From Vectrevirus LI10P3: DNA of 44,534 nt. Numbering within the stretch: position 1 is the first letter of the stretch; every line of letters begins with the position of its first letter. The translations under genes and the position numbers were made by a program. The stretch lies in the sequence record OZ035807.1; one strand, given 5' to 3'. Shown piece by piece: positions 775 through 32,004 of this stretch. The notes under the pieces were generated by a model. The model ran no database searches. It was not told the DNA's origin and saw only the letters and a program-made list of their open reading frames with translations.

Positions 775-2659
775 AGAATCACAGGCAGAGGCATTAAAGC
801 GGTGGGAAAACCTTAAAGAACTACAAGACACTTTTAAATATACAGCGGAAGGTTTGCTTCTCTTTGCAGATACAGTTATTCATAACTTAATTGCAGGCAA
901 CCCTCATCTGATTCGTATGCAGGCGGATATCTTGAAGTTCCTATTTTACGGACACAAGTACCGCCTCATCGAAGCGCCTCGTGGTATCGCTAAGACAACA
1001 CTATCAGCAATCTATACGGTATTCCGTATTATTCATGAACCGCATAAGCGTATCATGGTTGTGTCCCAAAACGCCAAGCGAGCAGAGGAAATCGCAGGTT
1101 GGGTAGTTAAAATCTTCCGTGGCTTAGACTTTCTTGAGTTTATGCTGCCGGATATCTACGCTGGGGACCGTGCATCAGTTAAGGCGTTTGAGATTCATTA
1201 CACCCTACGTGGTAGTGATAAGTCTCCTTCTGTATCCTGTTACTCAATCGAAGCAGGTATGCAGGGTGCTCGTGCTGATATTATTCTAGCGGATGACGTA
1301 GAGTCGATGCAGAATGCTCGTACGGCAGCGGGCCGTGCCTTGCTTGAGGAGCTGACTAAGGAGTTTGAATCTATCAACCAGTTTGGGGATATCATTTACC
1401 TTGGTACACCTCAGAACGTAAACTCTATCTACAACAACCTACCTGCTCGTGGTTACTCTGTTCGTATCTGGACTGCGCGTTACCCTTCAGTAGAGCAAGA
1501 GCAATGTTATGGCGACTTCCTTGCACCTATGATTGTGCAAGATATGAAGGACAACCCAGCACTTCGCTCAGGGTACGGGTTGGATGGTAATAGTGGTGCA
1601 CCTTGTGCCCCTGAAATGTATGATGATGAAGTCCTGATTGAGAAGGAAATCTCTCAGGGTGCTGCTAAGTTCCAGCTTCAGTTCATGCTTAACACTCGCA
1701 TGATGGATGCTGACAGATACCCATTACGCCTGAACAATCTAATCTTCACCTCGTTTGGTACAGAGGAAGTCCCTGTGATGCCTACGTGGAGTAATGATTC
1801 CATAAACATCATTGGTGATGCACCTAAGTATGGTAACAAGCCTACGGATTTCATGTACAGACCTGTAGCTCGCCCATACGAATGGGGTGCTGTCTCCCGC
1901 AAGATTATGTATATTGACCCTGCGGGTGGTGGTAAGAACGGAGACGAGACGGGTGTAGCCATCGTATTCCTGCACGGCACATTCATTTATGTGTATCAGT
2001 GCTTTGGTGTACCTGGCGGATACCGAGAGTCGTCCCTGAATCGCATTGTGCAGGCCGCAAAGCAGGCGGGTGTTAAAGAGGTATTCATTGAGAAGAACTT
2101 TGGTCATGGCGCGTTTGAGGCGGTAATTAAGCCGTACTTTGAACGAGAGTGGCCTGTAACTCTGGAAGAGGATTACGCCACCGGACAGAAAGAGTTGCGT
2201 ATCATTGAGACGCTGGAGCCGCTCATGGCAGCACATAGGCTTATCTTCAATGCAGAGATGGTGAAGTCAGACTTTGAGTCGGTACAGCACTATCCGCTTG
2301 AACTACGCATGTCCTACAGTCTTTTCAATCAAATGTCGAACATAACGATTGAGAAGAACAGCCTCCGGCACGATGACCGCCTAGACGCCCTGTATGGCGC
2401 TATACGGCAATTAACTTCTCAGATAGACTATGACGAGGTTACACGGATTAATCGCCTCAGAGCGCAGGAGATGCGCGATTACATCCATGCTATGAATACA
2501 CCTCATCTACGCAGGGCAATGCTATATGGAGATTACGGTACTGAGCGAAGAGTGACCAACACTTCCGTAGCGATGCAGCAGCGAGTTTACGGGCAGAACT
2601 ACCGAAATAAATCGGCAAGCAGAAATACACTTTCTGCAAGGATTTCAAGGACTTATTAA
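761..2659 (+). CDS. terminase large subunit (T7 gp19-like)
   Basis: 632 aa from ATG 761 with AAGGAG RBS; Walker-A-like EAPRGIAKTT near N-terminus; size and position conserved. Confidence 0.85.
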   Translation: MAKARESQAEALKRWENLKELQDTFKYTAEGLLLFADTVIHNLIAGNPHLIRMQADILKFLFYGHKYRLIEAPRGIAKTTLSAIYTVFRIIHEPHKRIMVVSQNAKRAEEIAGWVVKIFRGLDFLEFMLPDIYAGDRASVKAFEIHYTLRGSDKSPSVSCYSIEAGMQGARADIILADDVESMQNARTAAGRALLEELTKEFESINQFGDIIYLGTPQNVNSIYNNLPARGYSVRIWTARYPSVEQEQCYGDFLAPMIVQDMKDNPALRSGYGLDGNSGAPCAPEMYDDEVLIEKEISQGAAKFQLQFMLNTRMMDADRYPLRLNNLIFTSFGTEEVPVMPTWSNDSINIIGDAPKYGNKPTDFMYRPVARPYEWGAVSRKIMYIDPAGGGKNGDETGVAIVFLHGTFIYVYQCFGVPGGYRESSLNRIVQAAKQAGVKEVFIEKNFGHGAFEAVIKPYFEREWPVTLEEDYATGQKELRIIETLEPLMAAHRLIFNAEMVKSDFESVQHYPLELRMSYSLFNQMSNITIEKNSLRHDDRLDALYGAIRQLTSQIDYDEVTRINRLRAQEMRDYIHAMNTPHLRRAMLYGDYGTERRVTNTSVAMQQRVYGQNYRNKSASRNTLSARISRTY

Positions 2660-2680
2660 TTACTGGACACTATAGAAGGA
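2655..2680 (+). promoter_or_regulatory. phage RNAP promoter
   Basis: ATTAATTACTGGACACTATAGAAGGA directly after the terminase stop; matches 13-copy consensus. Confidence 0.7.
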
Positions 2681-2816
2681 AGGCCCAGATAATAAGAGAA
2701 AATAATAGGTAATATATAGTTTAACCTAGGTTATATAGGTATGCCTTAGTATGGGTGTACTCCTGTACACCCTATTCCTTACTACCTTACTATATTTACA
2801 TAATAGGAGAGAGACA

Positions 2817-3095
2817 ATGGCTAATGATTATAGTAGTCAACCATTAACAGGTAAGTCTAAGAGAAAGCAGGTACAACCTGTAAGTGAAGAACTAATGCTT
2901 CCGGTAATCAAAAAAGAGGAAGCTAGTAAGAAAAGCAATGTCATTAATGATGCCACCAAATCAGGTAAACAGAAAGGGGCCATGGTGTGCCTTGAAGTGG
3001 AAGGTGGTATATTGAAGATTGCTATCGCGGTTGATGGCAAAGAAGATTCAGAGTGGAAGTTAGTAACAGTGGAACCAGCTGTTAACCCAGTTTAA
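2817..3095 (+). CDS. hypothetical protein, paralog A
   Basis: ATG 2817 with AGGAGAGAG RBS; shares the block SGKQKGAMVxLE...L(K/H)IA(I/V)A with the next ORF. Confidence 0.6.
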   Translation: MANDYSSQPLTGKSKRKQVQPVSEELMLPVIKKEEASKKSNVINDATKSGKQKGAMVCLEVEGGILKIAIAVDGKEDSEWKLVTVEPAVNPV

Positions 3096-3113
3096 GATAA
3101 GGAGGAAGATTAC

Positions 3114-3401
3114 ATGGCTAAATATGGTACTACAGGTTCTGTTACTGGTCAGGCTTTTCGAGTAAAAGCAGTACAAACTATTGCAACGGCAATCCCGATG
3201 CCTGTTGTTAAAGAAGCAGACCTTAATAGTAAAGATCACCCTATCAACATCAAACATTTATCAGGTAAACAGAAAGGTGCAATGGTTGCTCTTGAGAAAA
3301 GTGACACAACCTTACATATTGCTGTTGCACGTGGTAGTGAACCAACAGACCCTTGGGATTTAACTGGCATGGAATCGCTCGCTGTCACTCCAGCAGGTTG
3401 A
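3114..3401 (+). CDS. hypothetical protein, paralog B
   Basis: ATG 3114 with TAAGGAGGAAG RBS; clear sequence similarity to 2817..3095 (LSGKQKGAMVALE). Confidence 0.6.
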   Translation: MAKYGTTGSVTGQAFRVKAVQTIATAIPMPVVKEADLNSKDHPINIKHLSGKQKGAMVALEKSDTTLHIAVARGSEPTDPWDLTGMESLAVTPAG

Positions 3402-3406
3402 GAATA

Positions 3407-3751: not shown

Positions 3752-3859
3752 GTTGTGTTGCATGGTGTGAACGCATGGTTGCTAAGGCTTCAGAGGAAGG
3801 CAACTATGAAGATTGGCAGAACTACTCAACTTTATTAGCTCAATGGAAAGGGAGATGCA

Positions 3860-4325: not shown

Positions 4326-4349
4326 ATTTACTGGACACTATAGAAGAGG
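4326..4349 (+). promoter_or_regulatory. phage RNAP promoter
   Basis: TTTACTGGACACTATAGAAGAG upstream of tailspike 1. Confidence 0.7.
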
Positions 4350-4427: not shown

Positions 4428-6326
4428 ATGGCTAAATTAACCAAACCTAATACTGAAGGAATCTTGCATAAAGGACAATCTTTGTATGAGTACCTTGATG
4501 CGAGAGTTTTAACATCAAAGCCGTTTGGTGCTGTAGGTGACGCCACTACTGATGATACGGAGGTTATAGCTGCTTCATTAAACTCTCAGAAAGCTGTCAC
4601 AATCTCAGACGGTGTATTCTCTAGCTCTGGTATTAATAGTAATTACTGTAACTTAGACGGTAGAGGTAGTGGGGTGCTAAGTCACCGTTCCAGTACAGGT
4701 AATTACTTAGTATTTAACAATCCACGTACAGGTCGCTTAAGTAATATTACGGTAGAAAGTAATAAGGCGACTGATACAACTCAGGGACAGCAGGTATCTC
4801 TTGCCGGTGGAAGTGATGTTACTGTAAGTGACGTTAACTTCTCAAACGTTAAAGGTACTGGTTTCAGTTTAATCGCATACCCTAATGATGCGCCACCTGA
4901 TGGACTTATGATTAAAGGTATTCGAGGTAGCTATTCAGGCTATGCTACTAATAAGGCAGCTGGATGCGTACTTGCTGACTCCTCAGTTAACTCCCTCATA
5001 GATAACGTCATTGCTAAGAACTACCCTCAGTTCGGAGCAGTAGAGTTGAAAGGTACAGCCAGTTACAACATAGTCAGTAATGTTATAGGGACAGATTGCC
5101 AGCATGTAACTTACAACGGCACTGAAGGGCCAATAGCTCCTTCTAATAACCTTATCAAGGGGGTGATGGCTAATAACCCTAAGTATGCAGCGGTTGTTGC
5201 AGGCAAAGGAAGTACGAACTTAATCTCAGACGTGCTAGTAGATTACTCAACTTCTGATGCTAGGCAGGCTCATGGTGTTACCGTAGAAGGGTCTGATAAC
5301 GTCATAAATAATGTGCTTATGTCAGGATGTGATGGTACTAACTCTTTAGGACAAGGGCAGACTGCTACAATTGCACGCTTTATAGGTACAGCTAATAACA
5401 ACTATGCGTCTGTATTCCCTAGCTACAGTGCTACAGGTGTTATTACTTTCGAATCCGGCTCTACCCGTAACTTCGTAGAGGTAAAGCACCCTGGCAGGAG
5501 AAACGACCTTCTCAGTTCTGCTAGTACTATTGACGGTGCAGCTACTATTGACGGCACTAATAATAGTAACGTAGTGCACGCACCTGCCTTAGGGCAGTAC
5601 ATAGGTAGTATGTCAGGTAGGTTCGAATGGCGGATTAAGTCCATGTCACTCCCTTCAGGCGTTCTTACTTCTGCTGATAAGTACAGAATGCTTGGGGATG
5701 GTGCTGTATCATTAGCTGTAGGTGGTGGTACTTCTTCTCAAGTTCGCCTATTTACTTCTGATGGTACTTCTCGGACAGTGGCCCTCACCAACGGTAACGT
5801 GCGTCTTTCTACCAGTAGCACAGGCTATTTGCAGTTAGGTGCTGATGCAATGACCCCAGATAGTACTGGTACATACGCATTAGGTTCCGCCAGTCGAGCA
5901 TGGTCTGGCGGTTTTACTCAAGCAGCATTCACTGTTACCTCAGATGCTCGGTGTAAAACAGAACCTCTTACTATCTCAGATGCCTTACTGGATGCTTGGT
6001 CTGAAGTTGACTTTGTGCAGTTTCAGTATTTGGATCGTGTTGAGGAGAAGGGTGCAGACTCAGCTAGATGGCACTTCGGTATCATCGCTCAGCGAGCTAA
6101 GGAGGCTTTCGAACGTCACGGTATAGATGCACATCGCTATGGCTTCTTGTGCTTCGACAGTTGGGATGATGTATACGAGGAAGATGCCAATGGCTCTCGT
6201 AAACTGATTACACCAGCAGGTTCCCGCTACGGTATTCGTTACGAGGAAGTACTGATATTAGAGGCTGCGTTGATGCGGAGGACTATCAAGCGTATGCAGG
6301 AAGCACTAGCTTCCCTGCCTAAGTGA
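4428..6326 (+). CDS. tailspike 1: beta-helix depolymerase with C-terminal intramolecular chaperone (peptidase S74-like) domain
   Basis: ATG 4428 with GGAGA RBS; N-terminal FGAVGDATTDDTEVIAA is the pectate-lyase-fold signature; C-terminus has SDARCK followed by LDAWSEVDF...WHFGIIAQRAKEAF, as in endosialidase / tail-fibre chaperone domains. Confidence 0.8.
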   Translation: MAKLTKPNTEGILHKGQSLYEYLDARVLTSKPFGAVGDATTDDTEVIAASLNSQKAVTISDGVFSSSGINSNYCNLDGRGSGVLSHRSSTGNYLVFNNPRTGRLSNITVESNKATDTTQGQQVSLAGGSDVTVSDVNFSNVKGTGFSLIAYPNDAPPDGLMIKGIRGSYSGYATNKAAGCVLADSSVNSLIDNVIAKNYPQFGAVELKGTASYNIVSNVIGTDCQHVTYNGTEGPIAPSNNLIKGVMANNPKYAAVVAGKGSTNLISDVLVDYSTSDARQAHGVTVEGSDNVINNVLMSGCDGTNSLGQGQTATIARFIGTANNNYASVFPSYSATGVITFESGSTRNFVEVKHPGRRNDLLSSASTIDGAATIDGTNNSNVVHAPALGQYIGSMSGRFEWRIKSMSLPSGVLTSADKYRMLGDGAVSLAVGGGTSSQVRLFTSDGTSRTVALTNGNVRLSTSSTGYLQLGADAMTPDSTGTYALGSASRAWSGGFTQAAFTVTSDARCKTEPLTISDALLDAWSEVDFVQFQYLDRVEEKGADSARWHFGIIAQRAKEAFERHGIDAHRYGFLCFDSWDDVYEEDANGSRKLITPAGSRYGIRYEEVLILEAALMRRTIKRMQEALASLPK

Positions 6327-6411: not shown

Positions 6412-8124
6412 ATGCTTCAAAGATTAAGTGCTTACTTGGTGAAGTACAAGAGTAAACTAACAGGTACTATTGAGCGCCTGCTATCTGATAAACTATCGGA
6501 TACAATAGATGTTGCGGATTTTGGAGTTACTCCATCTTCCAATGACAACAGGCAAGCACTTCAAGCTGCGTTCAATGCAGTCAGAGTGTTAGGCGGTGGC
6601 ACTGTATTAGTCACTAAAGCTGGCGAATATAAACTCAGTGGTACTGTTGAGATATTTGCTAATACACACTTCAAGGTTGCTAAAGGTGTAACATTTGTAC
6701 GTGACTACGAAACAGGAGATACGCTATTCAGATTATCACAAGGGCAAGCTAGTAATGTAACAGTCAGTGGAGGTATCTATGAAGGCAATGGTCACACTAA
6801 GGGAGATACACCTTTTGTAGTATTTGCATCTACTAGTAATAATGATTTGAAGTTTGAAGGCATAACAGTTAACAATGTAGTGGACTACCACGCCATAGAT
6901 TTAGCAGATTGGAACAACGTAGTTATTCGTGATTGTAAATTCCTAGGTTTTAAGAATACAGGCAGTCGTAACTTCTCAGAGGCTATACAGTTAGACCCAG
7001 GTCTTATTACAGTTGGTCACTATGTACAGTCAAGTGGTATGCTGGTGGAGAATTGCTATGCTGGTCCAAACACAGAATCAGGGTTTGGAGGTTATGGTGC
7101 ACTAATTGGAAATCACGCCTCAGCTTACGGTGTACAGGACAACAATATCCGTATCTTGAATTGCACTACAGATGGTGCTCTCTTTGCAGGTGTACGTGTA
7201 TTTAACTGGAAAAACTGGACAGTGCGTGGTTGCACATTTAGGAACTCTAATGCAAGAGGTGTTCATGTTACACCTGTTTCCTCTCAAACTAAACCGCAAG
7301 GAACTCGACAAGGTAGTATTGTAGATTGTACTTTTGATGGCGTAAGAACACCAGTGCTAATTGCTGCACCATCTTGGCCTTTTACCGATATTAGTGACAT
7401 TTGGCATGACCATATTGAAATTTCTAATAATACTATGATCCTCACAGAGGATGTATCCTATGGTGTAGATGCAAGGTGGTGTAAGAATTTAATTGTAAAA
7501 GGTAATACAGGCTCTGGTGGCTTAGGGTTAATCGGTTTACGCTTTGGGACAAAATACCACATCGAAGGTAATACTTGGGAAAACGGAAGAGGTAGTGGGA
7601 TTTGGTTAGGTGAGTCTGATGCTACTACATTCATTGGTACTGGATTATCGGGCGAAGGTATACTTAGTCGTAATATCCTCTCTAAATTAGGGCAATATGG
7701 TATTCATGTAAACTGCAAGGTTGGCGGTCTAGTGATTAAGGCTAATAATATGAAGGAAGTGTCTACAGCTGAAGCAGGTAGGCGCTTCATTAGCATAGAC
7801 ACAGGAGCTAACAACATCCTAGTAGAAGGTAATATTGGAGTAGATGGAGAAAGCCCTAACAAGCCAAGCCTTGGTATTCGTGTTACTTCTTCTTGTTCCA
7901 ATATTAAACTCATTGGCAATGATTGCTATGGTACACAGGCGCCTCAGAATAACCAAGGAGTCGGTTCTAGTACGGTGATTGTTTATGGACTAAATGGCAA
8001 TCCTACAACTTTAGGCGTAGGTGCACCTGTAGGCTCTTTAGCAACTGATATCAATGGGTCTGGTGGTAGTACATTGTACGTTAAAGAATCTGGTACATCT
8101 GCTCAAGGTTGGGTTGCAAAGTAG
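6412..8124 (+). CDS. tailspike 2: beta-helix depolymerase-like
   Basis: 570 aa, AGAGGAGG RBS; N-terminal VADFGVTPSSNDNRQALQAAFNA pattern typical of pectate-lyase-fold tailspikes; no C-terminal chaperone domain. Confidence 0.75.
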   Translation: MLQRLSAYLVKYKSKLTGTIERLLSDKLSDTIDVADFGVTPSSNDNRQALQAAFNAVRVLGGGTVLVTKAGEYKLSGTVEIFANTHFKVAKGVTFVRDYETGDTLFRLSQGQASNVTVSGGIYEGNGHTKGDTPFVVFASTSNNDLKFEGITVNNVVDYHAIDLADWNNVVIRDCKFLGFKNTGSRNFSEAIQLDPGLITVGHYVQSSGMLVENCYAGPNTESGFGGYGALIGNHASAYGVQDNNIRILNCTTDGALFAGVRVFNWKNWTVRGCTFRNSNARGVHVTPVSSQTKPQGTRQGSIVDCTFDGVRTPVLIAAPSWPFTDISDIWHDHIEISNNTMILTEDVSYGVDARWCKNLIVKGNTGSGGLGLIGLRFGTKYHIEGNTWENGRGSGIWLGESDATTFIGTGLSGEGILSRNILSKLGQYGIHVNCKVGGLVIKANNMKEVSTAEAGRRFISIDTGANNILVEGNIGVDGESPNKPSLGIRVTSSCSNIKLIGNDCYGTQAPQNNQGVGSSTVIVYGLNGNPTTLGVGAPVGSLATDINGSGGSTLYVKESGTSAQGWVAK

Positions 8125-8285: not shown

Positions 8286-9131
8286 GCAGGTTAATATCTT
8301 AGTGTACACAAGGGCAGACCTAGGTTTGCTCTTAGTGTATTTACAATGGAGGTCTTATGTATATACCTATGGAAGCAATAGTAGGTTGCCTATGCTTGTT
8401 GATAGGTTTCGTTATAGGCTTACTAGTAAATCCTTAGTCCTGTACAAGGATTAACCAAAGTCAAAATTTTAATATAGGCGTGTGTGAGGTGTCTCGCCCT
8501 CGCCCTCGCCGGATTTCCCCCATATGGGGCCGCGTTGCGGTTGGCTTGGGAATTGGGCTGGGCTGGTCCGTCTTCGACGGGTGGGCCGAGGTCTGCCGAG
8601 GCTTGCTCTTAGTGGGAGCACAAGGAGAACGCCTAGGAAGCGCTAGGGCACGCCTTAGTATTGGACAAGGTGATTGCCTTAGTGAAGCCTCTTAGTGCAT
8701 TCCTGAGGTCATTCAGGGCGCTTATGAGGGATTGACAGGGTGGATGGGCGTGGGCTATCTGTTCGTTTCGTTCACTCCGCTTGCGCTACGTTCACTCGCT
8801 CACGTGTACCTTAGGTTATTCCTTGATGGATAGCTTAGGTTAGCCTTAGTGGATTACCTTAGTTAAAGCCTTAGTGCTTCACTTAGTATCAGCTTAGTAG
8901 TGTACCTTAGTAAGTATTAGTGTCTTCTCTTAGTGATTGCACATGCAAGCATGTAAGATGCCATTAGGTCGCGGTCGGTAGACCGCTAAAGAAGGAGAAT
9001 AGTAATAAGATGCAGTAGGAGGAACACCAGAAACCTAGCCAACCTAGCCTATCCTAGCTCTGTATCTATTGCTTTTCCTTAGTCTAACATGTGAGACAAC
9101 CTAGATTTATCTTAGTGATGATATCTTAGTG

Positions 9132-9160
9132 TTGACAAGGCCATCTCAATATAATACTAT
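9132..9160 (+). promoter_or_regulatory. candidate host sigma70 early promoter
   Basis: TTGACA - 17 bp - TACTAT read directly. Confidence 0.4.
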
Positions 9161-9715: not shown

Positions 9716-9744
9716 TTGACAGCCACGGCATACAAGGTTACATT
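9716..9744 (+). promoter_or_regulatory. candidate host sigma70 early promoter
   Basis: TTGACA - 17 bp - TACATT. Confidence 0.4.
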
Positions 9745-10454: not shown

Positions 10455-10568
10455 ATGGAAAAGCTATACAACTTCATCTTTTCAGACGGTGTAACCCTGA
10501 AGTGTTCCCTGCGTTTCGCACAAATTCGTGAGGAAGTACTAGGCACTACATACAAACTATTTAGCTGA
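10455..10568 (+). CDS. hypothetical small protein
   Basis: 37-aa ORF with GAGGAA RBS immediately after ocr. Confidence 0.25.
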   Translation: MEKLYNFIFSDGVTLKCSLRFAQIREEVLGTTYKLFS

Positions 10569-10584
10569 CACTATAAGAGAAGGC
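10564..10584 (+). promoter_or_regulatory. degenerate phage promoter-like sequence
   Basis: AGCTGACACTATAAGAGAAGG; core has GA/AG transposition (TATAAGAG vs TATAGAAG). Confidence 0.2.
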
Positions 10585-10872: not shown

Positions 10873-10935
10873 CTAGCCTATAGCCTACCTGAGTGGGCTA
10901 TGTGATATTTACTTACACTATATAAGGTGACTATT

Positions 10936-11922: not shown

Positions 11923-14550
11923 ATGCAAGACTTACACGCTATTCAACTTCAACTTGAAGAAGAAATGTTTAACGGCGGTATCCGTCGCTTTGAAGCGGAC
12001 CAACAGCGCCAGATTGCATCCGGTAATGAATCAGACACGGCATGGAATCGCCGCTTATTGTCCGAGTTAATTGCGCCAATGGCTGAAGGTATTCAGGCAT
12101 ACAAGGAAGAGTATGAAGGCAAGCGCGGTCGTGCACCACGTGCATTGGCTTTCATTAACTGCGTAGAAAATGAAGTGGCAGCGTATATCACGATGAAGAT
12201 CGTAATGGATATGCTTAACACTGATGTAACCTTGCAAGCTATCGCTATGAATGTAGCTGACCGCATCGAAGACCAAGTGCGCTTCAGTAAACTAGAAGGC
12301 CATGCAGCTAAATATTTTGAGAAGGTCAAGAAGTCACTTAAGGCAAGTAAGACTAAATCATATCGCCATGCGCACAACGTAGCGGTCGTGGCTGAGAAGT
12401 CAGTAGCTGACCGTGACGCTGATTTCTCCCGCTGGGAGGCATGGCCTAAAGACACCTTGCTGCAAATTGGGATGACCTTGCTTGAAATCTTAGAGAATAG
12501 CGTATTCTTCAACGGGCAACCTGTCTTCCTCCGCACCTTGCGCACTAATGGCGGCAAACATGGTGTTTACTACCTACAGACTAGTGAACACGTAGGTGAG
12601 TGGATAACTGCATTTAAAGAACATGTAGCGCAACTTAGTCCAGCCTATGCACCTTGCGTTATTCCTCCGCGTCCGTGGGTATCACCCTTTAACGGTGGGT
12701 TTCATACTGAGAAAGTAGCAAGCCGTATTCGTCTGGTAAAAGGCAATCGTGAGCACGTCCGCAAGCTGACCAAAAAGCAAATGCCAGCGGTTTACAAGGC
12801 TGTTAACGCTTTGCAGGCGACTAAGTGGCAGGTTAATAAAGAGGTTTTACAGGTTGTGGAGGACGTTATACGTCTAGACCTCGGCTATGGTGTACCTTCC
12901 TTTAAACCACTCATCGACCGTGAGAACAAGCCAGCTAATCCGGTGCCGTTAGAGTTCCAGCACCTGCGAGGCCGTGAACTGAAAGAAATGCTTACGCCGG
13001 AACAATGGCAAGCCTTTATCAACTGGAAAGGTGAATGTACTAAGCTGTACACCGCTGAAACTAAGCGCGGAAGCAAATCGGCGGCAACCGTTCGCATGGT
13101 TGGTCAGGCCCGTAAATATAGCCAGTTCGACGCAATCTACTTCGTGTATGCACTGGACAGCCGCAGCCGTGTATACGCGCAATCTAGCACACTCTCACCG
13201 CAATCAAATGACTTGGGCAAGGCCTTGCTCCGTTTTACCGAAGGGCAGCGTCTTGATAGCGCTGAGGCGCTTAAGTGGTTTTTGGTGAACGGGGCTAATA
13301 ACTGGGGTTGGGATAAGAAAACTTTTGACGTGCGCACTGCTAACGTGCTGGATAGTGAATTTCAAGACATGTGCCGCGACATTGCAGCGGATCCGCTGAC
13401 CTTCACTCAATGGGTAAATGCCGACTCCCCTTACGGCTTCCTTGCATGGTGCTTTGAATATGCGCGTTATCTGGATGCACTGGATGAAGGCACGCAAGAC
13501 CAATTCATGACGCACCTCCCAGTCCATCAAGATGGTAGTTGTTCTGGTATCCAGCACTACAGTGCTATGCTACGCGATGCAGTAGGTGCGAAAGCAGTAA
13601 ACCTTAAGCCCTCTGACTCTCCTCAAGATATTTATGGTGCCGTTGCGCAGGTAGTAATTCAGAAGAATTATGCATACATGAATGCAGAGGATGCGGAAAC
13701 CTTCACTTCTGGCAGCGTGACTTTAACAGGTGCGGAGCTGCGTAGTATGGCTAGTGCGTGGGATATGATAGGAATCACTCGCGGCCTGACCAAAAAGCCC
13801 GTAATGACACTACCTTATGGCAGCACACGTCTAACCTGCCGTGAGTCAGTGATTGATTATATCGTTGATTTAGAAGAAAAAGAGGCCCAACGGGCTATTG
13901 CGGAAGGGCGTACCGCCAATCCTGTACACCCTTTTGATAATGACCGTAAGGACAGCCTGACACCTAGCGCAGCTTATAACTATATGACAGCTTTAATCTG
14001 GCCTTCTATTTCGGAAGTGGTTAAAGCTCCTATAGTGGCAATGAAAATGATTCGTCAGCTTGCACGTTTCGCAGCTAAAAGGAATGAAGGCTTAGAGTAC
14101 ACCTTGCCTACTGGCTTCATCTTGCAACAAAAGATAATGGCGACAGATATGCTCCGCGTATCTACTTGCTTGATGGGAGAAATCAAGATGAGTCTACAGA
14201 TTGAAACGGACGTAGTGGATGAAACGGCTATGATGGGCGCTGCTGCCCCTAACTTTGTGCACGGTCATGATGCCAGTCACCTTATCTTAACGGTCTGCGA
14301 CCTTGTTGATAAAGGGATTACATCTATCGCAGTAATTCATGATTCTTTTGGCACTCATGCAGGTCGCACCGCAGACCTACGTGATAGTCTAAGGGCAGAA
14401 ATGGTGAAGATGTATCAAGGCCGTAATGCCCTGCAAAGCCTGTTAGATGAGCATGAAGAACGCTGGTTAGTAGACACCGGAATCCAAGTGCCAGAGCAAG
14501 GAGAGTTTGACCTTAACGAAATCTTAGTATCTGACTATTGCTTCGCATAA
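11923..14550 (+). CDS. single-subunit DNA-dependent RNA polymerase (SP6-type)
   Basis: 875 aa; N-terminus [30 protein letters not shown] and motifs [34 protein letters not shown] match the SP6 RNAP family as I recall it; C-terminal ...DYCFA. Confidence 0.95.
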
Positions 14551-14558
14551 TATTAATA

Positions 14559-14590
14559 GGCCATTCCTTCGGGAGTGGCCTTTCTTTTAC
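14559..14590 (+). terminator. early terminator hairpin after RNAP gene
   Basis: AGGCCATTCC-TTCG-GGAGTGGCCT stem-loop (one G-U pair) followed by TTTCTTTT. Confidence 0.55.
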
Positions 14591-14639
14591 CTACTACCGG
14601 TAACATTTCATTAACATAAAGTGTCTCACATGTGAGACT

Positions 14640-14664
14640 TATTTACCGGACACTATAGGATAGC
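14640..14664 (+). promoter_or_regulatory. phage RNAP promoter variant
   Basis: TATTTACCGGACACTATAGGATAG. Confidence 0.5.
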
Positions 14665-14825
14665 CGTCGGAGACGGGAAAGAAAAGGGAAGATAAAGGAT
14701 ATAAAAGGAAGTAATAGGTATTAAAGGCTATATAGGTTATCTAGGAATACCTATTACCTTCTTCCTTCCTCTTATTACTACTTAGAGGAAGGGCAGATCT
14801 AGGTTGTCTCACATGTGAGACTTCG

Positions 14826-14849
14826 TATTTACCGGACAGTATAGATAAG
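14826..14849 (+). promoter_or_regulatory. phage RNAP promoter variant
   Basis: TATTTACCGGACAGTATAGATAAG (two core substitutions). Confidence 0.4.
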
Positions 14850-15006: not shown

Positions 15007-16995
15007 ATGGCTATTATTCAGAATGTACCGTGTCCTGCTTGCCAAAAGAATGGACATGATATTACTGGCAACCATCTTATGATATTTGAGGATGGCGCTG
15101 GTTACTGTAACCGTGGTCACTTCCATGATAATGGGAAGCCTTATTACCATAAGCCAGAGGGTGGCATCGAGATAACCGAGTTACCTATTACTGGCAATAT
15201 CAAATATACACCTTCTCAATTCAAAGAAATGGAGAAGGAAGGGAAGATAAGCGACCCTAAGCTACGCGCCATCGCTCTTGGTGGTATGCGTATGAAAGAC
15301 CGTTGGGAGGTCATGAATGAGCAAGAAAGGGCAGACCAAGAAGCAGAGTGGAAACTTGATGTTGAATGGTTCCTCACGCTTAAGCGTAAGAACCTTGTAT
15401 CCCGTCACATTCGAGGTGACATCGCAGCAATGTACGATGTGCGCGTTGGACACGATGAAGAGGGAAGAGTCAACCGTCACTATTATCCACGATATGAAAA
15501 GGGTGTGCTTGTTGGGGCAAAATGCCGGACGTTGCCGAAGGATTTTAAGTTCGGACACCTAGGTAAACTCTTTGGTATGCAAGATCTTTTCGGTATGAAC
15601 ACTTTGTCTCACGTGTTAGACAAGGGGAGACGAAAGGATTGCTTGCTTATTGTAGGCGGTGAACTTGATGCACTAGCAGCGCAGCAGATGCTCCTTGATT
15701 CTGCCAAGGGTACTAAGTGGGAAGGCCAGCCATACCATGTATGGTCTGTCAACAAAGGCGAGTCTTGTCTTGAAGAGATAGTGCAAAACCGTGAGCATAT
15801 CGCCCAATTCAAGAAGATTATATGGGGTTTTGATGGAGATGAGGTAGGGCAGAAGCAGAATCAGCAAGCGGCTCGCCTGTTTCCTGGCAAATCCTATATC
15901 CTTGAATACCCCTCTGGTTGCAAAGATGCTAACAAGGCATTGATGGCTGGCAAGGCCAAAGAGTTTGTTGATGCATGGTTTAATGCCAAGTCATCTGATG
16001 AAGTCTTTGGTAGCCAGATTAAATCTATCGCCTCTCAAAGGGATAAGCTCAAGGCTGCACGTCCAGAGCAAGGACTATCATGGCCTTGGCCTAAGCTGAA
16101 CAAGGTAACGCTAGGTATTCGTAAGAACCAACTTATCATTGTAGGCGCAGGCTCTGGTGTAGGTAAGACTGAGTTCCTTCGTGAAGTAGTTAAGCACCTC
16201 ATTGAAGAACACGGTGAATCTGTAGGCATCATTTCTACAGAAGACCCGATGGTCAAGGTGTCCCGTGCTTTTATCGGCAAGTGGGTTGATAAGCGTATTG
16301 AGTTACCGCCAACCAACGACCCGAAAGAAGATGGATACCGTGAGGTGTTCGACTACACCGAGGAAGAGGCTAACGCCGCCATTGATTATGTAGCTGATAC
16401 AGGTAAGCTGTTTGTAGCTGACCTAGAGGGTGACTATTCGATGGAAAAGGTAGAGCAAACTTGCCTAGAGTTTGAGGCTATGGGCATTTCTAATATCATC
16501 ATTGATAACTTAACGGGGATTAAATTAGATGAGCGTGCTTTTGGTGGGAAGGTTGGTGCACTTGATGAATGCGTCAAGCGGATTGGTACTATCAAAGACC
16601 GACACCCGGTTACTATATTCCTTGTATCACACCTTACACGTCCTCCGGCAAACCGTACCCAACACGAAGAAGGTGGCGAAGTTATCCTTTCTGACTTCCG
16701 AGGCTCAGGCGCTATCGGATTCTGGGCATCTTACGCCTTGGGGATTGAGCGTAATACAAGAGCTGAAACGCTTGACGAAAGGACTACCACGTACATCTCA
16801 TGTGTCAAAGACCGCGACCAAGGTATCTACACTGGAACCAAGGTCATGCTTAAGGGTGACATTCAAACCGGACGTTTAATGGAACCACAAGCCCGTACTA
16901 AGTCATTTGATACAGGTGAAGCAAGGCAACAAGAAGTGCCGGATTTACCGGACACTATAGAAGAGACAACCTTTGACGATGAACAGGAGTTTTAA
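15007..16995 (+). CDS. DNA primase/helicase (T7 gp4-like)
   Basis: 662 aa; N-terminal zinc ribbon CPACQ...C..GH; Walker A GAGSGVGKTEF; DnaB-like C-terminal half. Confidence 0.9.
   Translation: MAIIQNVPCPACQKNGHDITGNHLMIFEDGAGYCNRGHFHDNGKPYYHKPEGGIEITELPITGNIKYTPSQFKEMEKEGKISDPKLRAIALGGMRMKDRWEVMNEQERADQEAEWKLDVEWFLTLKRKNLVSRHIRGDIAAMYDVRVGHDEEGRVNRHYYPRYEKGVLVGAKCRTLPKDFKFGHLGKLFGMQDLFGMNTLSHVLDKGRRKDCLLIVGGELDALAAQQMLLDSAKGTKWEGQPYHVWSVNKGESCLEEIVQNREHIAQFKKIIWGFDGDEVGQKQNQQAARLFPGKSYILEYPSGCKDANKALMAGKAKEFVDAWFNAKSSDEVFGSQIKSIASQRDKLKAARPEQGLSWPWPKLNKVTLGIRKNQLIIVGAGSGVGKTEFLREVVKHLIEEHGESVGIISTEDPMVKVSRAFIGKWVDKRIELPPTNDPKEDGYREVFDYTEEEANAAIDYVADTGKLFVADLEGDYSMEKVEQTCLEFEAMGISNIIIDNLTGIKLDERAFGGKVGALDECVKRIGTIKDRHPVTIFLVSHLTRPPANRTQHEEGGEVILSDFRGSGAIGFWASYALGIERNTRAETLDERTTTYISCVKDRDQGIYTGTKVMLKGDIQTGRLMEPQARTKSFDTGEARQQEVPDLPDTIEETTFDDEQEF
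16943..16965 (+). promoter_or_regulatory. phage RNAP promoter (inside 3' end of helicase gene)
   Basis: ATTTACCGGACACTATAGAAGAG. Confidence 0.6.
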
Positions 16996-17156: not shown

Positions 17157-17228
17157 TGTATTTATCAGGGCTTGTCTCACATGTGAGACAGGCTCTTATT
17201 AAGTACATTAAATAACTGGAGATTGATT

Positions 17229-17912
17229 ATGTATAAATTAGTATTGAATGTAGGTGATTATGTTCGTAACATCAATGAAGCCTCACGTCGTTATCGTTGC
17301 CGTGGTGTAGTGGCTCGTGTAAGTGAGAACATGTATCATGTAGAATATGATGATGGTATTAAGGCTTCTTATCACAAGAAAACCGCACATAAATATCTTG
17401 AAAAGGTTGTAGAGGTAAACAATCAATGTAAGTGCATACATGATGAGGTTTGCGATAAATGTGCTCGCCAGATGCTTAAGAATTTCCTAGCCCCTCTTTA
17501 TTATGGTGCTGGTCCTCAAACACTAGCAGAGTACATGGCAGAAAAGAAAACCACACTCAAGAAAGAGCGTCGCAATGTAATCACTGGTAAGACTCAAAGT
17601 GAGATGATTAAGCAATGTGGCACTGCATTAGGTGTTACACAGTTCAATACTCGTGCATTGGGTAAATCCACAGGGCAAGCTATGGTGAAAATTGGTGAAG
17701 CTATGATGCAACCAAATGTACCTGTGCGAATCGTGGATATTGACCATGCAATCACAGAGCATGGTACACCACGCCGTGTAGCTAACAATCATTTTGCCGA
17801 CACTATAGAAGACATTATTCGTAAGCAAGGGTTGAAGGGTCTTCACATCTTAAATGGTGAAGAATTACTGTACCTACCTATCGTTACTGAAGAAACCTAC
17901 GTGAATATCTAA
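17229..17912 (+). CDS. hypothetical protein
   Basis: 227 aa from ATG 17229 with GGAGA RBS; Cys cluster CKCIHDEVCDKC; contains an internal phage promoter. Confidence 0.6.
   Translation: MYKLVLNVGDYVRNINEASRRYRCRGVVARVSENMYHVEYDDGIKASYHKKTAHKYLEKVVEVNNQCKCIHDEVCDKCARQMLKNFLAPLYYGAGPQTLAEYMAEKKTTLKKERRNVITGKTQSEMIKQCGTALGVTQFNTRALGKSTGQAMVKIGEAMMQPNVPVRIVDIDHAITEHGTPRRVANNHFADTIEDIIRKQGLKGLHILNGEELLYLPIVTEETYVNI
17791..17813 (+). promoter_or_regulatory. phage RNAP promoter (internal to CDS)
   Basis: ATTTTGCCGACACTATAGAAGAC. Confidence 0.45.
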
Positions 17913-18307: not shown

Positions 18308-18364
18308 GTCAAGGGTTGTCTCACACGTGAGACAGCCTTTCATCATATTGATTGGAGGTGCATT

Positions 18365-21492: not shown

Positions 21493-21518
21493 ATTTACTG
21501 GACACTATAGAAGGAAAG
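21493..21518 (+). promoter_or_regulatory. phage RNAP promoter
   Basis: ATTTACTGGACACTATAGAAGGAAAG. Confidence 0.7.
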
Positions 21519-21579: not shown

Positions 21580-21957
21580 ATGTCTATGGTAACTACTCTG
21601 GTATTTGTAGCTCAATACTTTCGTGGTCTGGCTAATAAGTTCAAGTCCAAGGCTATCAAAGCTATTGAGTCTCGCATCGAGGCAGTACAGGCAGAGCAAG
21701 TTAAAGTTGAAGAACATCGTAGTTCTAAAATGATTGACTGCCATAACCGCTACTATGCATCTCGTGATGACCTTAATGCACGCCAAGTCAAAGAGGTTGA
21801 AGAGATGCTGGCACGTCACCAGCAAGAGCGCGACAGTCTGAAAGCTGAATTTGAAGAGAACAAGGCATCCATCGCCCTTGTACATCAAGCCGCATCTGAC
21901 AGCCTGAAGAAAGAGATTGTTATGCTTGAAATTGAGTTAGACAACCTGACCAAATAA
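21580..21957 (+). CDS. hypothetical coiled-coil protein
   Basis: 125 aa, RBS ATAGGAGA; heptad-like K/E-rich sequence. Confidence 0.55.
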   Translation: MSMVTTLVFVAQYFRGLANKFKSKAIKAIESRIEAVQAEQVKVEEHRSSKMIDCHNRYYASRDDLNARQVKEVEEMLARHQQERDSLKAEFEENKASIALVHQAASDSLKKEIVMLEIELDNLTK

Positions 21958-21979
21958 TTACTGGACACTATAGAACAAT
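21956..21979 (+). promoter_or_regulatory. phage RNAP promoter
   Basis: AATTACTGGACACTATAGAACAAT. Confidence 0.6.
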
Positions 21980-23154: not shown

Positions 23155-23186
23155 AGTCTCACATGTGAGACAAATCGGTGTCCGGT

Positions 23187-23210
23187 ATTTACTGGACACT
23201 ATAGAAGAGA
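23187..23210 (+). promoter_or_regulatory. phage RNAP promoter
   Basis: TATTTACTGGACACTATAGAAGAG, preceded by the GTCTCACATGTGAGAC palindrome. Confidence 0.7.
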
Positions 23211-25342: not shown

Positions 25343-26342
25343 GCTTCGCAGCTTGTACAAAGACTCCGAGGTACTTGATGCAATCGAGCAAGCTACCGAC
25401 GAGAAAGGTAATGTTAATTATAATGAGATGGCACGTGTATTATCGTGTCACCCTGTGGGTAAGAAGATTACCCGCCAGTTGGCTCGATACTGGCATGGTC
25501 AATTCAAGAAGACCAAGAAGAATGGTGATTATTACCAGACCCTTCTGCAAGAAGATAAGCGTATCAAAGAAGAGCGTAAGCTCAGGACTCCTGACCGCTA
25601 CGAGGATTTGGCTATTGTACCATTGCCTGACTCGCCTCATCGAAGTGTACTGGTAATCCCTGATACTCATGCACCTTATGAGCATCCAGATACCTTAGAG
25701 TTCCTTGCAGCAGTCGCGGCACGTTACCGTCCAGATACAGTGGTTCACTTAGGAGATGAGGCAGATAAACACGCCCTCTCCTTCCATGACTCTGACCCTA
25801 ATCTGGATAGTGCTGGCATGGAGCTAGAGAAGGCTCGTGTCTTCATGCACAAGTTGCACAAGATGTTCCCTGTGATGCGCCTGTGTCATTCTAATCACGG
25901 CTCTATGCACTTCCGTAAGGCAAGCGCCAAGGGTATTCCAGTACAATATCTTCGCACCTACCGTGAAGTCTTTTTCCCAAATGGAGGTGGCGACCAGTGG
26001 GATTGGCAGCATACACATGTTCTTGAGTTGCCGAATGGTGAACAAGTGGCATTCAAGCATCAACCTGCTGGCTCTGTCCTAGCAGATGCAGCGCATGAGC
26101 GTATGAACCTTGTGTGTGGTCACTTGCACGGTAAGATGTCTGTGGAGTACGCACGTAATACACATGAACAGTATTGGGCTGTGCAAGGTGGCTGCTTAAT
26201 TGATGAGTCATCCCGTGCATTTGCCTATGGTCGTGAGTCTAAATACAAGCCAGCATTAGGTTGTGTGGTCATTCTGGAGGGTGTGCCTCACATTGTCCCG
26301 ATGCAAACCAATAGCGACAACCGTTGGATTGGCAAGATTTAG
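25335..26342 (+). CDS. calcineurin-like metallophosphoesterase
   Basis: TTG start preceded by GAAGGAGG RBS; motifs IPDTHAPYEHPD, HLGDEADKH, HSNHGSMHF match the metallophosphatase signature. Confidence 0.65.
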   Translation: MGKLRSLYKDSEVLDAIEQATDEKGNVNYNEMARVLSCHPVGKKITRQLARYWHGQFKKTKKNGDYYQTLLQEDKRIKEERKLRTPDRYEDLAIVPLPDSPHRSVLVIPDTHAPYEHPDTLEFLAAVAARYRPDTVVHLGDEADKHALSFHDSDPNLDSAGMELEKARVFMHKLHKMFPVMRLCHSNHGSMHFRKASAKGIPVQYLRTYREVFFPNGGGDQWDWQHTHVLELPNGEQVAFKHQPAGSVLADAAHERMNLVCGHLHGKMSVEYARNTHEQYWAVQGGCLIDESSRAFAYGRESKYKPALGCVVILEGVPHIVPMQTNSDNRWIGKI

Positions 26343-26361
26343 TTGACACTATAGAACAAAG
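26340..26361 (+). promoter_or_regulatory. phage RNAP promoter
   Basis: TAGTTGACACTATAGAACAAAG. Confidence 0.5.
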
Positions 26362-28691: not shown

Positions 28692-28695
28692 AGGA

Positions 28696-28824
28696 ATGGA
28701 GATGCTTGAGATGATTCTCAAGCCTTCTTCTCCGAAGGTGACTAAGACTCATGAAGAGTTAATCGTTGATGAAGTGAAGCGTTACATCATGGATTGTGTC
28801 AGAGCACAACTGGTGGTCCAATGA
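28696..28824 (+). CDS. hypothetical small protein
   Basis: 42 aa; stop overlaps GNAT start (ATGA). Confidence 0.3.
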   Translation: MEMLEMILKPSSPKVTKTHEELIVDEVKRYIMDCVRAQLVVQ

Positions 28825-29282: not shown

Positions 29283-29291
29283 GGAGATAAC

Positions 29292-29501
29292 ATGGGTGTT
29301 GTAAAGAAAGCATTTAAGGCTATCGGTCTTGCTCAAGATGCACCACGTATTGAAGCGAAAGTGCCAGCACAGCAGCTTGAGCGTAAGCCAGAGACTGAAG
29401 CTGAAGATATTCAGATTGGTGCAGGAGATGATGATGCTACTGCATCTGCAAAAGGCAAGCGTGGCCTTGTCCGTCCGGTAGCTTCTAGCTTGAAGGTGTA
29501 A
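29292..29501 (+). CDS. hypothetical small protein upstream of portal
   Basis: 69 aa, RBS AAGGAGA. Confidence 0.5.
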   Translation: MGVVKKAFKAIGLAQDAPRIEAKVPAQQLERKPETEAEDIQIGAGDDDATASAKGKRGLVRPVASSLKV

Positions 29502-29502
29502 T

Positions 29503-31053: not shown

Positions 31054-31973
31054 TGTCTTTCTCATTTACTGAACCGTCAACCACTCACCCTACTGCTGAA
31101 GAGGGTCCGGTAGAAACCAAGGAGGTAACAACTGATGCTGCTACTACTGATGCTACTGCTGACGCTGGCACTGCTGTACAAGATGACAATGCTGGTGCAC
31201 AACCTACTGAAGACACCGGAGGAGAGGCTTCTGGACAGCCTTCAGAAAAAGGAGACAATGGCGGAGAGAATGGTGAATCTAAGCCAGATGATACCGCGAC
31301 CGACACTGAGGAAGTGCAATACTTCTTCGGAGAACATGAAGTAACAATAGACATCCCACAGGATGTAACTGACAGCCTTAAAGAGAAAGGCATTGATGCC
31401 AAGCAGGTTGCCAAGGAACTCTATTCCAAAGGTGGCAAGTTTGAACTGTCAGATGCAACCAAGCAGAAATTGTATGATGCTTTTGGCAAGTTTGCGGTAG
31501 ATGCTTACCTGTCAGGTCTTAAGGCTCAAAATGAAGCCTTCTTCCTGAAAGAAGCCAACGCAGCTAAAGAGTTGGAAGCAGCTAACACCCAACGCTTCTC
31601 TGATGTTTCTAAGGAAATTGGTGGCGAAGAAGGTTGGTCCCGTCTTGAGGAGTGGGCGCTTGAAACGCTATCCGATGACGAACTCACGGCATTCAATGCT
31701 GTGATGGAGTCTGGCAACCAGTACCTCCAGCAGTACGCTGTGCGTGAACTGGAGAGCCGCCGTAAGACTGCACAGGGTGATGATAGGCCATCCCTGATTG
31801 AGCCATCAGCACCTGCTAAGGCTAATGAAGAGAATGGCCCACTGACGCGAGATCAGTACGTTCAAGCAATCGCAACTCTTAGCCAGAAGTACGGCAATGA
31901 CCGTAAAGCTATGGCAGAAGCTCAGGCTAAACTGGACGCCCGTCGCCGTGCTGGCATGGCTCGCGGTATCTAA
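31053..31973 (+). CDS. scaffolding protein (T7 gp9-like)
   Basis: 306 aa, acidic low-complexity N-terminus; between portal and capsid. Confidence 0.7.
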   Translation: MSFSFTEPSTTHPTAEEGPVETKEVTTDAATTDATADAGTAVQDDNAGAQPTEDTGGEASGQPSEKGDNGGENGESKPDDTATDTEEVQYFFGEHEVTIDIPQDVTDSLKEKGIDAKQVAKELYSKGGKFELSDATKQKLYDAFGKFAVDAYLSGLKAQNEAFFLKEANAAKELEAANTQRFSDVSKEIGGEEGWSRLEEWALETLSDDELTAFNAVMESGNQYLQQYAVRELESRRKTAQGDDRPSLIEPSAPAKANEENGPLTRDQYVQAIATLSQKYGNDRKAMAEAQAKLDARRRAGMARGI

Positions 31974-31977
31974 TTCA

Positions 31978-32004
31978 GTATTTACTGGACACTATAGAAG
32001 GGAG
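31978..32004 (+). promoter_or_regulatory. phage RNAP promoter upstream of capsid gene
   Basis: GTATTTACTGGACACTATAGAAGGGAG. Confidence 0.75.

Follow-up and report, generated by a model that had tools for sequence, protein, structure and literature searches.

The genome of Vectrevirus LI10P3 (sequence record OZ035807.1), analysed here as one window of 44,534 nucleotides, carries a short sequence many times over. A first-pass annotation read these repeats as phage promoters with an SP6-like core and a distinct upstream triplet, and proposed that together with the encoded RNA polymerase (RNAP) they form a distinct, possibly orthogonal, pair. This raises the question of whether the repeats are promoters, to which class they belong, and how far they and their polymerase are separated from the SP6 system.

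Thirteen co-oriented repeats upstream of phage genes

The window is the circularly permuted genome of a Vectrevirus, an E. coli phage of the K1E/K1-5 group; across 98% of its first 25 kb it is 97% identical to Vectrevirus LI10P3. ATTTACYGGACACTATAGAAG recurs in it in 13 strong copies, every one on the + strand, with none expected by chance. A consensus search allowing ≤3 mismatches returned nine matches (0 expected from 100 shuffles), the core GACACTATAGAAG matched 15 times in the window against 1.4 expected, and an iterated weight-matrix scan of the window gave 13 promoter sites on the + strand and none on the − strand; GACACTATAG, with 11 copies, is the commonest 10-mer of the genome. The repeated element is about 23 bp long (−17 to +6), with the core CACTATAG at −7 to +1, and its −17 base is the first coordinate given for each of the 13 sites below. 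Every copy runs in the same direction as the genes and lies just upstream of one, either in an intergenic gap or over a gene's last bases, with the next start codon 31–217 nt downstream. A search of the whole window against Rfam matched no family, and the GenBank/RefSeq records of K1E, K1-5, and SP6 (NC_007637, NC_008152, AY370674, NC_004831, AY288927) carry no annotated promoter features.

Unless a weight matrix is named as the only source, the sites, all on the + strand, were recovered by both the consensus search and the weight matrix. The site at 121–143 (CAATACTGGACACTATAGAAGAA; weight matrix, 31.2 bits), whose transcript is predicted to begin with the G at 138, falls within the small terminase gene, 5′ of an HNH ORF and the large terminase gene, and is identical to K1E 37182 and K1-5 35488. 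At the end of the large terminase gene and 5′ of gene 41 we found 2658–2680 (AATTACTGGACACTATAGAAGGA), identical to K1-5 37593, while the K5-lyase tailspike gene is preceded by the consensus promoter ATTTACTGGACACTATAGAAGAG (4326–4348), identical to K1E 41717 and K1-5 39265; the same consensus sequence recurs 5′ of gene 18 (23187–23209). A weak variant with the triplet GCT and A at +1 (ATTTAGCTGACACTATAAGAGAA, 10559–10581; weight matrix) stands 5′ of ORF75, gene 6, and the RNA polymerase gene and is also present in K1E, K1-5 and, as a variant, at SP6 2104. Just past the RNAP gene and its terminator comes a pair of sites, 14641–14663 (ATTTACCGGACACTATAGGATAG) and 14827–14849 (ATTTACCGGACAGTATAGATAAG), with gene 8 beginning 31 nt downstream of the latter. 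Further along, 16943–16965 (ATTTACCGGACACTATAGAAGAG) falls within the 3′ end of the primase/helicase gene, and a variant with the triplet GCC (ATTTTGCCGACACTATAGAAGAC, 17791–17813; weight matrix) is located inside gene 10, 5′ of gene 10.5. Genes 15 and 16 follow 21493–21515 (ATTTACTGGACACTATAGAAGGA) and 21956–21978 (AATTACTGGACACTATAGAACAA), respectively, and the nucleotide kinase gene follows a variant with the triplet GTT (ATTTAGTTGACACTATAGAACAA, 26337–26359; weight matrix), whose counterpart in the genome encoding RNAP No. 2049 (see below) has GGT. Finally, 31980–32002 (ATTTACTGGACACTATAGAAGGG) has the major capsid gene 56 nt downstream; published K1E expression systems use this promoter type, the promoter of each phage having been taken from upstream of its major capsid gene (PMC6412113).

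The first-pass annotation had placed 13 promoters within 2655–32004. The number holds for strong sites, but only 12 fall inside that range, the other being the one at 121–143, and the thirteenth site of that annotation may be a degenerate promoter-like sequence, ATTTACTTACACTATATAAGG (ATTTACTT-ACACTATATAAGG), at 10906–10927 on the + strand. This sequence scores below the threshold of the weight-matrix scan, has T at +1, and carries a 1-nt deletion when compared with K1-5 site 2323.

The promoter set and polymerase are those of K1E and K1-5

A cognate polymerase is encoded in the same genome. The gene at 11923–14550 (+ strand) specifies a single-subunit RNAP of 875 aa (Pfam RNA_pol, 9.5e-90; RPOL_N, 1.5e-31) that is 99.8% identical to the K1-5 enzyme, 99.1% to K1E, 85.5% to SP6, and 35% to T7. 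Directly 3′ of it lies a terminator-like hairpin followed by TTCTTTT (14558–14581, + strand), and a terminator-like 11-bp hairpin followed by TCTTTTTGTT is found directly 3′ of the major capsid gene (33272–33298, + strand). A conserved 16-bp palindrome/hairpin family was also met in passing and may merit separate study.

In copy number, in orientation and placement, and in the presence of a cognate single-subunit RNAP in the same genome, the repeats belong to the T7-supergroup promoter class. Within it, the consensus ATTTACYGGACACTATAGAAG, the pyrimidine at −11, the syntenic sites, and a Ser at the T7 N748 equivalent of the RNAP place them in the K1E/K1-5 class, with whose consensus the window consensus is identical. 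All 13 window promoters have one-to-one counterparts at syntenic positions in K1-5 and K1E: Against K1-5, ten match exactly and three show a single-base difference; against K1E, ten match exactly, two show a single-base difference, and one has three. The specificity loop, AT-rich loop, and hairpin region of the RNAP are likewise identical in these phages. Differences are at strain level only and include, besides the degraded counterpart of K1-5 site 2323, an HNH ORF inserted downstream of promoter 121, a different second tailspike, and the absence of gene 15.5, so that promoter 21956 directly follows gene 15.

What had been put forward as a new promoter–polymerase pair is therefore the K1E/K1-5 pair, with an RNAP 99.1–99.8% identical and promoters at the same places. 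This pair already serves as a tool and has been classified separately from SP6 (PMC6412113, PMC12231593, PMC12400119, PMC11880802): In E. coli and mammalian cells, the RNAPs of K1E and K1.5 transcribe from their own promoters (PMC6412113, PMC12231593, PMC12400119), and K1E and SP6 fall into different specificity clusters, distinguished by the residues at T7 positions 748/756/758 and the bases at −12 to −8 (PMC11880802). Another close relative is the metagenome-derived RNAP No. 2049, which is 98.1% identical to the window RNAP and is encoded in a genome with almost the same 13 promoters (Godel et al, 2026; PMC13029058). Its working promoter is TATTTACTGGACACTATAGGAGGA, and it transcribes TATTTACTGGACACTATAG... 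templates in vitro (PMC13029058). The enzyme has Gly, not Ser, at the T7 Q758 equivalent (S757G), and its genome contains two GGT-type promoters, unlike the window, which has none.

SP6 (Zindervirus) shares the 23-bp promoter architecture, the number of sites, and their gene neighbourhoods with the window, and its consensus, correctly stated in the first-pass annotation and given as ATTTAGGTGACACTATAGAAG by our census of the SP6 genome, is identical to that of the window at −17 to −13 and −9 to +4. The two diverge in the consensus triplet, GGT in SP6 versus CYG in the window (compare the SP6-type promoter ATTTAGGTGACACTATAGAAGAG with the window consensus promoter ATTTACTGGACACTATAGAAGAG). The SP6 class is marked by G at −11 (consensus ATTTAGGTGACACTATAG) and an RNAP with Arg746, and the window lacks both.

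Position −11 co-varies with one residue of the specificity loop

In the window, the −12 to −10 triplet is CTG at seven sites and CCG at three, as the first-pass annotation had it, but GCT, GCC, and GTT at one site each; GGT occurs at none of the 13, and −11 is T or C in 13/13 and G in 0/13. We extended the comparison to a census of promoter sites in 23 genomes and contigs. Sites of Ser-type enzymes carry T (43), C (58), or G (2) at −11, that is, a pyrimidine in 101/103, and those of Arg-type (SP6-type) enzymes carry G in 65/65, counts that come from orthologous copies in close relatives and represent in effect one evolutionary switch, not ~100 independent events. At −12 and −10 the two types overlap. 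The difference from SP6 is thus located within the −12 to −10 segment, as originally proposed, but only −11 discriminates.

The polymerase had been described as SP6-like with a divergent specificity loop, and the alignments bear this out. The 34-residue loop (14131–14232, + strand), delimited by MAFFT alignments, a phmmer alignment to T7 RNAP (1aro), and translation, differs from that of SP6 at six positions (E741D, R746S, D752E, V759I, I763V, and A767T in SP6 numbering), namely the replacement of Arg746 by Ser747 and five further conservative changes. Ser747 (codon TCT, 14161–14163) aligns with T7 N748 and SP6 R746, and this register agrees between MAFFT and the independent phmmer alignment. 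The same Ser is present in K1E, K1-5, and 10/10 IMG/VR Vectrevirus loci in which the loop is covered; the IMG/VR scan with the RNAP yielded 17 loci, close relatives only (84–100% identical), and wider RNAP and promoter diversity was drawn from GenBank phage genomes. The −11 base tracks this one loop residue, Arg746 in SP6 and Ser747 here, a co-variation that we observed directly.

Among more distant phages, Erwinia phage Era103, whose RNAP is 60% identical, likewise combines Ser at the T7 N748 equivalent with C at both −12 and −11. In Proteus PM85 and Klebsiella F5M1D, Arg occupies this position, yet −11 is A or T; since Arg pairs with −11 A or T in other genera, there is no simple residue–base code, and the rule that Arg specifies −11 G is ruled out. 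The homologous loop position, N748 in T7 and D749 in T3, sets −11/−10 specificity in those phages. There, too, one homologous loop residue co-varies with −11, but the T7/T3 switch is a residue–base contact, whereas its SP6-group counterpart is a putative one, and the T7/T3 pair is strongly orthogonal both ways, whereas the Ser-type enzyme still uses the Arg-type (SP6) promoter in published data. The proposed contact of Ser747 with −11 is based on the alignment to T7 RNAP at 35% identity, because our PDB search retrieved no SP6-group RNAP structure; T7 RNAP is the closest solved relative (E 4e-111). The T7 RNAP contacts made by R746, N748, R756, and Q758 are summarised in PMC11880802, where an evolved T7 RNAP with 748S recognises CCTGA at −12 to −8 (Table 2). 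In the same study, K1E or SP6 residue combinations grafted into T7 RNAP gave no activity, and the K1E/SP6 enzymes may depart from the T7 recognition rules (PMC11880802).

Reading of the repeats and specificity relative to SP6

We give next to no credence to the repeats being a signal other than promoters, such as a packaging, recombination, or replication element. Their start sites are predicted from the sequence, and two copies flank the region past the RNAP gene, which in T7 is the region of the replication origin. However, the core (−9 to +4) is identical to that of the experimentally defined SP6 promoter, all copies point along the genes and lie immediately upstream of them, the cognate polymerase is encoded in the same genome, and sequences almost identical to them act as promoters both in vitro and in cells (PMC13029058, PMC6412113, PMC12231593). 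It is highly probable that the 13 repeats serve as middle and late promoters in a K1E/K1-5-like Vectrevirus and are read by the phage's own single-subunit RNAP, and the original description of phage RNAP promoters with an SP6-type core is supported. The number, strand, and placement of the sites and their identity with those of K1E/K1-5 are direct observations; that near-identical enzymes start transcription from such sequences is taken from the literature (PMC13029058, PMC6412113, PMC12231593).

On the model of T7 and SP6, transcription of the early region and of the RNAP gene, as far as the terminator at 14558–14581, would fall to the host RNA polymerase. The phage RNAP would then initiate at the G of TATAG (+1) in each 23-bp promoter and read rightward across the replication, structural, and lysis genes, the second terminator lying past the capsid gene. 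The AT-rich recognition loop is expected to bind ATTTA at −17 to −13, and the specificity loop (residues 737–770) to read −12 to −7 in the major groove. What chiefly sets the class apart from SP6 is −11, T/C here and G in SP6, together with the single loop substitution Ser747 versus Arg746. Most likely, the preference of the Ser enzyme is shifted but relaxed, favouring a pyrimidine at −11 while still using SP6-type promoters, and the SP6 Arg enzyme probably requires G at −11. We infer both the residue–base contact and this asymmetry.

Could the two systems instead be orthogonal in both directions, with neither enzyme using the other's promoters? The consensus triplets differ (CYG versus GGT), −11 G is found in 65/65 SP6-type versus 2/103 K1E-type sites, and the residue at T7 N748, the classic T7/T3 specificity determinant, is Arg versus Ser. 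Against this, RNAP No. 2049, which has Ser747, uses the SP6 promoter in vitro (PMC13029058), natural GGT promoters occur in the No. 2049 phage genome and in IMG/VR locus L010, and, with GCT, GCC, and GTT among the window triplets, the RNAP must tolerate variation at −12 and −10. Relative to the T7 signal, the No. 2049 enzyme reached 3.5% on the SP6 promoter and ~2% on its own consensus, with templates differing solely at −12 to −10 and +6; its in vitro signals are low (2–10% of T7), and its loop differs at S757G (PMC13029058). For SP6 RNAP acting on K1E-type promoters, we found no test in the literature searched. Orthogonality to SP6 is unlikely, and in its strict two-way form very much so: One direction is contradicted by No. 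2049 (PMC13029058). The opposite reading, in which the triplets drifted neutrally and both RNAPs read both classes about equally with no real difference in specificity, appears improbable, if less so. No. 2049, a K1E-type enzyme, does read the SP6 promoter no less well than its own, the two classes overlap at −12 and −10, and the K1E-type genomes in the comparison are closely related, so that the shared −11 pyrimidine could in part be inherited. Yet in each genome the 11–13 paralogous sites all keep G (SP6-type) or all have T/C (K1E-type) at −11, and T and C interchange freely there in K1E-type sites while G and A are avoided, a pattern resembling selection. Moreover, the −11 change is accompanied by a substitution at the loop residue that sets T7/T3 specificity, and Era103 independently pairs Ser with −11 C.

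We tentatively consider it possible that SP6 and K1E represent a natural, essentially single-residue switch (Arg746 to Ser747) at −11 that may be asymmetric, which is compatible with the co-variation and with the one-direction in vitro data.

Implications

The finding is real but ordinary, as the promoters of this group have already been described and engineered; with the K1E/K1-5 polymerase–promoter pair already in cytoplasmic expression systems and promoter-design studies, it carries little weight as a discovery. The useful gain is a sharper statement of the difference from SP6, in which −11 is paired with Arg746/Ser747. Because a K1E-type enzyme reportedly reads the SP6 promoter, orthogonality should not be assumed where SP6 and K1E-type systems are used side by side. 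If the asymmetric switch is true, the Ser enzyme would read both classes, whereas SP6 RNAP would strictly need G at −11 and reject K1E-type promoters, and the two systems would form a one-way, hierarchical pair open to exploitation or to sharpening by engineering.

Phage promoters and genome layout

The promoter repeats described in the first-pass annotation occur far above chance, and the observation is correct. The annotated consensus, with up to three mismatches, matches nine times on the plus strand (none expected from 100 dinucleotide-preserving shuffles), and the core GACACTATAGAAG matches 15 times in the window versus 1.4 expected. When the exact copies were turned into a weight matrix and the scan of both strands was iterated three times, 13 sites emerged on the plus strand and none on the minus strand, with first bases (-17) at 121, 2658, 4326, 10559, 14641, 14827, 16943, 17791, 21493, 21956, 23187, 26337, and 31980. 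Thirteen sites had been placed between 2655 and 32004; 13 strong sites do exist, but 12 lie inside that range and one outside it, at 121-143. What was counted instead may be a degenerate sequence at about 10906, which corresponds to a weak K1-5 site but has decayed, with 1 nt deleted and T at +1. Every promoter lies between genes or at the very end of one, and all 13 are 31-217 nt from the next downstream start codon. At -12 to -10, seven sites carry CTG and three CCG, as annotated, but the remaining three have GCT, GCC, and GTT (one each); the SP6 triplet GGT is present in none of the 13.

According to mapped K1-5 proteins, the window is a complete, circularly permuted K1-5-like genome starting in the small terminase gene, with K1-5 position 1 at about 8620. 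Its first 25 kb share 92-97% identity with Vectrevirus genomes across most of their length. Each of the 13 promoters has a single counterpart in K1E, which has 13 such sites, and in K1-5, which has 14. Compared with K1-5, ten are unchanged and three have one base changed; compared with K1E, ten are unchanged, two have one base changed, and one has three. Terminator-like hairpins with T-runs directly follow the RNA polymerase (RNAP) gene (14558-14581) and the major capsid gene (33272-33298), and this promoter/terminator layout is that known from T7 and SP6. Two good sigma-70-like promoters, TTGACA-17 nt-TACTAT (9132-9160) and TTGACA-17 nt-TACATT (9716-9744), are located in the early region, and a 23-nt direct repeat beginning ATATCTTAGTGT occurs at 8294 and 9121.

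At 10559-10581, ahead of gene 6 and the RNAP gene, the promoter is a weak variant whose +1 base is A (TATAA). It is kept in K1E, K1-5, SP6, Klebsiella K44PH129C1, Salmonella PST_H2, Lelliottia phD2B, Pectobacterium PP1, and Klebsiella F5M1D, and it could allow the phage polymerase to boost expression of its own gene. In this respect the window differs from T7, which has no phage promoter ahead of gene 1.

Other features of the gene layout concern the terminase and tailspike regions. Between the small (30-326) and large (761-2656) terminase genes, which adjoin in K1-5, the plus strand carries an inserted ORF (about 330-774, listed as 184-774) with an HNH endonuclease domain (Pfam HNH_3, E 4e-11); in K1E, by contrast, a homing endonuclease lies inside the large terminase gene. 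The first tailspike gene (4428-6323) shares 98.9% identity with the K5 lyase of K1-5, and the second (6412-8124) encodes a beta-helix protein (Pfam Beta_helix) where the K1 endosialidase would be. This second tailspike is common to about 20 other Vectrevirus genomes (98-99.6% identity).

Position -11 and the polymerase specificity loop

The RNAP ORF (875 aa, 11923-14550; Pfam RNA_pol and RPOL_N) is 100% identical to that of Vectrevirus T205P5, 99.8% to K1-5, 99.1% to K1E, 85.5% to SP6, and 35% to T7. The annotation rightly described it as SP6-like with a differing specificity loop, where Ser747 stands in place of SP6 Arg746. By MAFFT and, independently, by phmmer alignment to PDB 1aro, R745, S747, K755, and S757 fall at R746, N748, R756, and Q758, the T7 contact residues as summarised in PMC11880802; the SP6 residues at these positions are R744, R746, K754, and S756. 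In the T7/T3 pair, the T7 N748 position is what sets specificity at -11/-10. Its equivalent is Arg in SP6 and the six further SP6-type sequences compared, and Ser in the window, K1E, K1-5, and 10 of 10 IMG/VR Vectrevirus loci in which the loop is covered. Ser is also found in the more distant lineage of Erwinia phage Era103, whose promoters carry C at -12 and -11. An evolved T7 RNAP carrying 748S reads CCTGA at -12 to -8 (Table 2 of PMC11880802). The PDB holds no structure of an SP6-group RNAP, and contact of this residue with the promoter is thus inferred from the alignments.

The same scan of the SP6 genome yielded 13 sites with the consensus ATTTAGGTGACACTATAGAAG, which bears out the SP6 promoter given in the annotation. 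The difference had been assigned to -12 to -10, and the two promoter types do differ there, but only -11 separates them cleanly. In a census of 23 genomes and contigs, SP6-type (Arg) promoters carry G at -11 in 65 of 65 cases, with G 49, T 7, C 6, and A 3 at -12 and T 41, G 16, A 7, and C 1 at -10; K1E-type (Ser) promoters carry T 43, C 58, and G 2 at -11, C 77, G 25, and T 1 at -12, and G 69, T 18, C 9, and A 7 at -10. The sites counted are orthologues from closely related genomes, so the counts record one evolutionary switch and not a hundred independent events. The bases at -12 and -10 are shared between the classes: some of SP6's own promoters have C or A at -12 and others G at -10, and among the promoters of K1E-type genomes some likewise show G at -12 or T at -10. 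The modest addition made here is that, in these sequence comparisons, the discriminating base is -11 alone, paired with Arg746/Ser747. A simple residue-base code was considered and rejected, as Proteus PM85 and Klebsiella F5M1D have Arg yet carry A or T at -11.

A known promoter/polymerase pair

The annotation was right in outline, but the pair that it proposed as distinct and possibly orthogonal is a known system. Capping-enzyme fusions of the K1E and K1.5 RNAPs, each paired with its cognate promoter, have already been employed in mammalian cells (PMC6412113; PMC12400119), and the K1.5 pair has served as an insulated system for which over 1000 promoter variants were measured (PMC12231593). 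A genome-mining study separates "K1E" and "SP6" as specificity clusters on the basis of residues 748/756/758 (T7 numbering) together with bases -12 to -8 (PMC11880802).

Orthogonality to SP6 is contradicted for the K1E-type enzyme acting on the SP6 promoter. The metagenomic RNAP "No. 2049" (Godel et al, 2026; PMC13029058) is, in its printed sequence, 98.1% identical to the window RNAP, retaining Ser747 and having one loop change (S757G). In a fluorescent-aptamer assay, it gave 3.5% of the T7 signal on the SP6 promoter TATTTAGGTGACACTATAGAAGAG and about 2% on its own consensus TATTTACTGGACACTATAGAAGAA (PMC13029058); therefore, this K1E-type enzyme does not disfavour the SP6 promoter. The promoter list of its genome is a near duplicate of that of the window, except that the No. 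2049 phage has two natural GGT promoters and the window none. For the reverse combination, SP6 RNAP on K1E-type promoters, we found no assay in the literature searched; that SP6-type genomes never depart from G at -11 suggests SP6 RNAP may be the more selective of the two.

A conserved palindrome family

The 16-bp perfect palindrome GTCTCACATGTGAGAC occurs in five exact copies (14623-14638, 14806-14821, 17174-17189, 23156-23171, and 40170-40185) and three copies with 1-2 changes (9082, 15606, and 18318). Three copies lie 18-31 nt upstream of the promoters at 14641, 14827, and 23187. Variants of the form GTCYMAC-RY-GTKRGAC, whose halves co-vary between genera, are present in syntenic positions at 7-9 per genome in nine of ten related genomes examined, spanning six genera (K1E, K1-5, SP6, Klebsiella K44PH129C1 and F5M1D, Salmonella PST_H2, Lelliottia phD2B, Pectobacterium PP1, and Erwinia Era103).

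The copies at 17174, 18318, and 40170 extend, on the sense strand only, to 13-bp stems with two G·U pairs each, followed by U-rich tails. RNA folding gave -20.3 kcal/mol sense versus -12.4 antisense for 17167-17196 (after gene 9.5), -18.5 versus -12.1 for 18312-18339 (after gene 11), and -18.3 versus -10.0 for 40163-40192 (between genes 35 and 36). Across the 10 genomes, at least four extra pairs form on the plus strand in 27 of 81 copies and on the minus strand in 4 of 81. These extended hairpins may act in RNA processing, termination, or stability. The family has no Rfam match, and none of six sequence variants looked for was found in any paper of the literature searched.

Promoter/polymerase pairs across the Molineuxvirinae

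Each of the further Molineuxvirinae genera compared has a separate promoter consensus and a separate specificity-loop sequence. The consensus is AATTAGGGGCTACTATAG in Lelliottia phD2B, AATTAAAGACCACTATAG in Proteus PM85, AATTAGGGCGGACTATAG in Pectobacterium PP1, TAATAGTGGCGAGTATAG in Klebsiella F5M1D, and ATTAACCACCCAGTATAG in Erwinia Era103. Promoter and loop pair as GGGGCTACTATAG with RVRTVLSGDIKMA in phD2B, GGGCGGACTATAG with VVKTQLMGRIEMS in PP1, and CCACCCAGTATAG with RVSSYLMGRVRMS in Era103. The Molineuxvirinae pairs constitute a ready-made natural series of SP6-group polymerases and their promoters.
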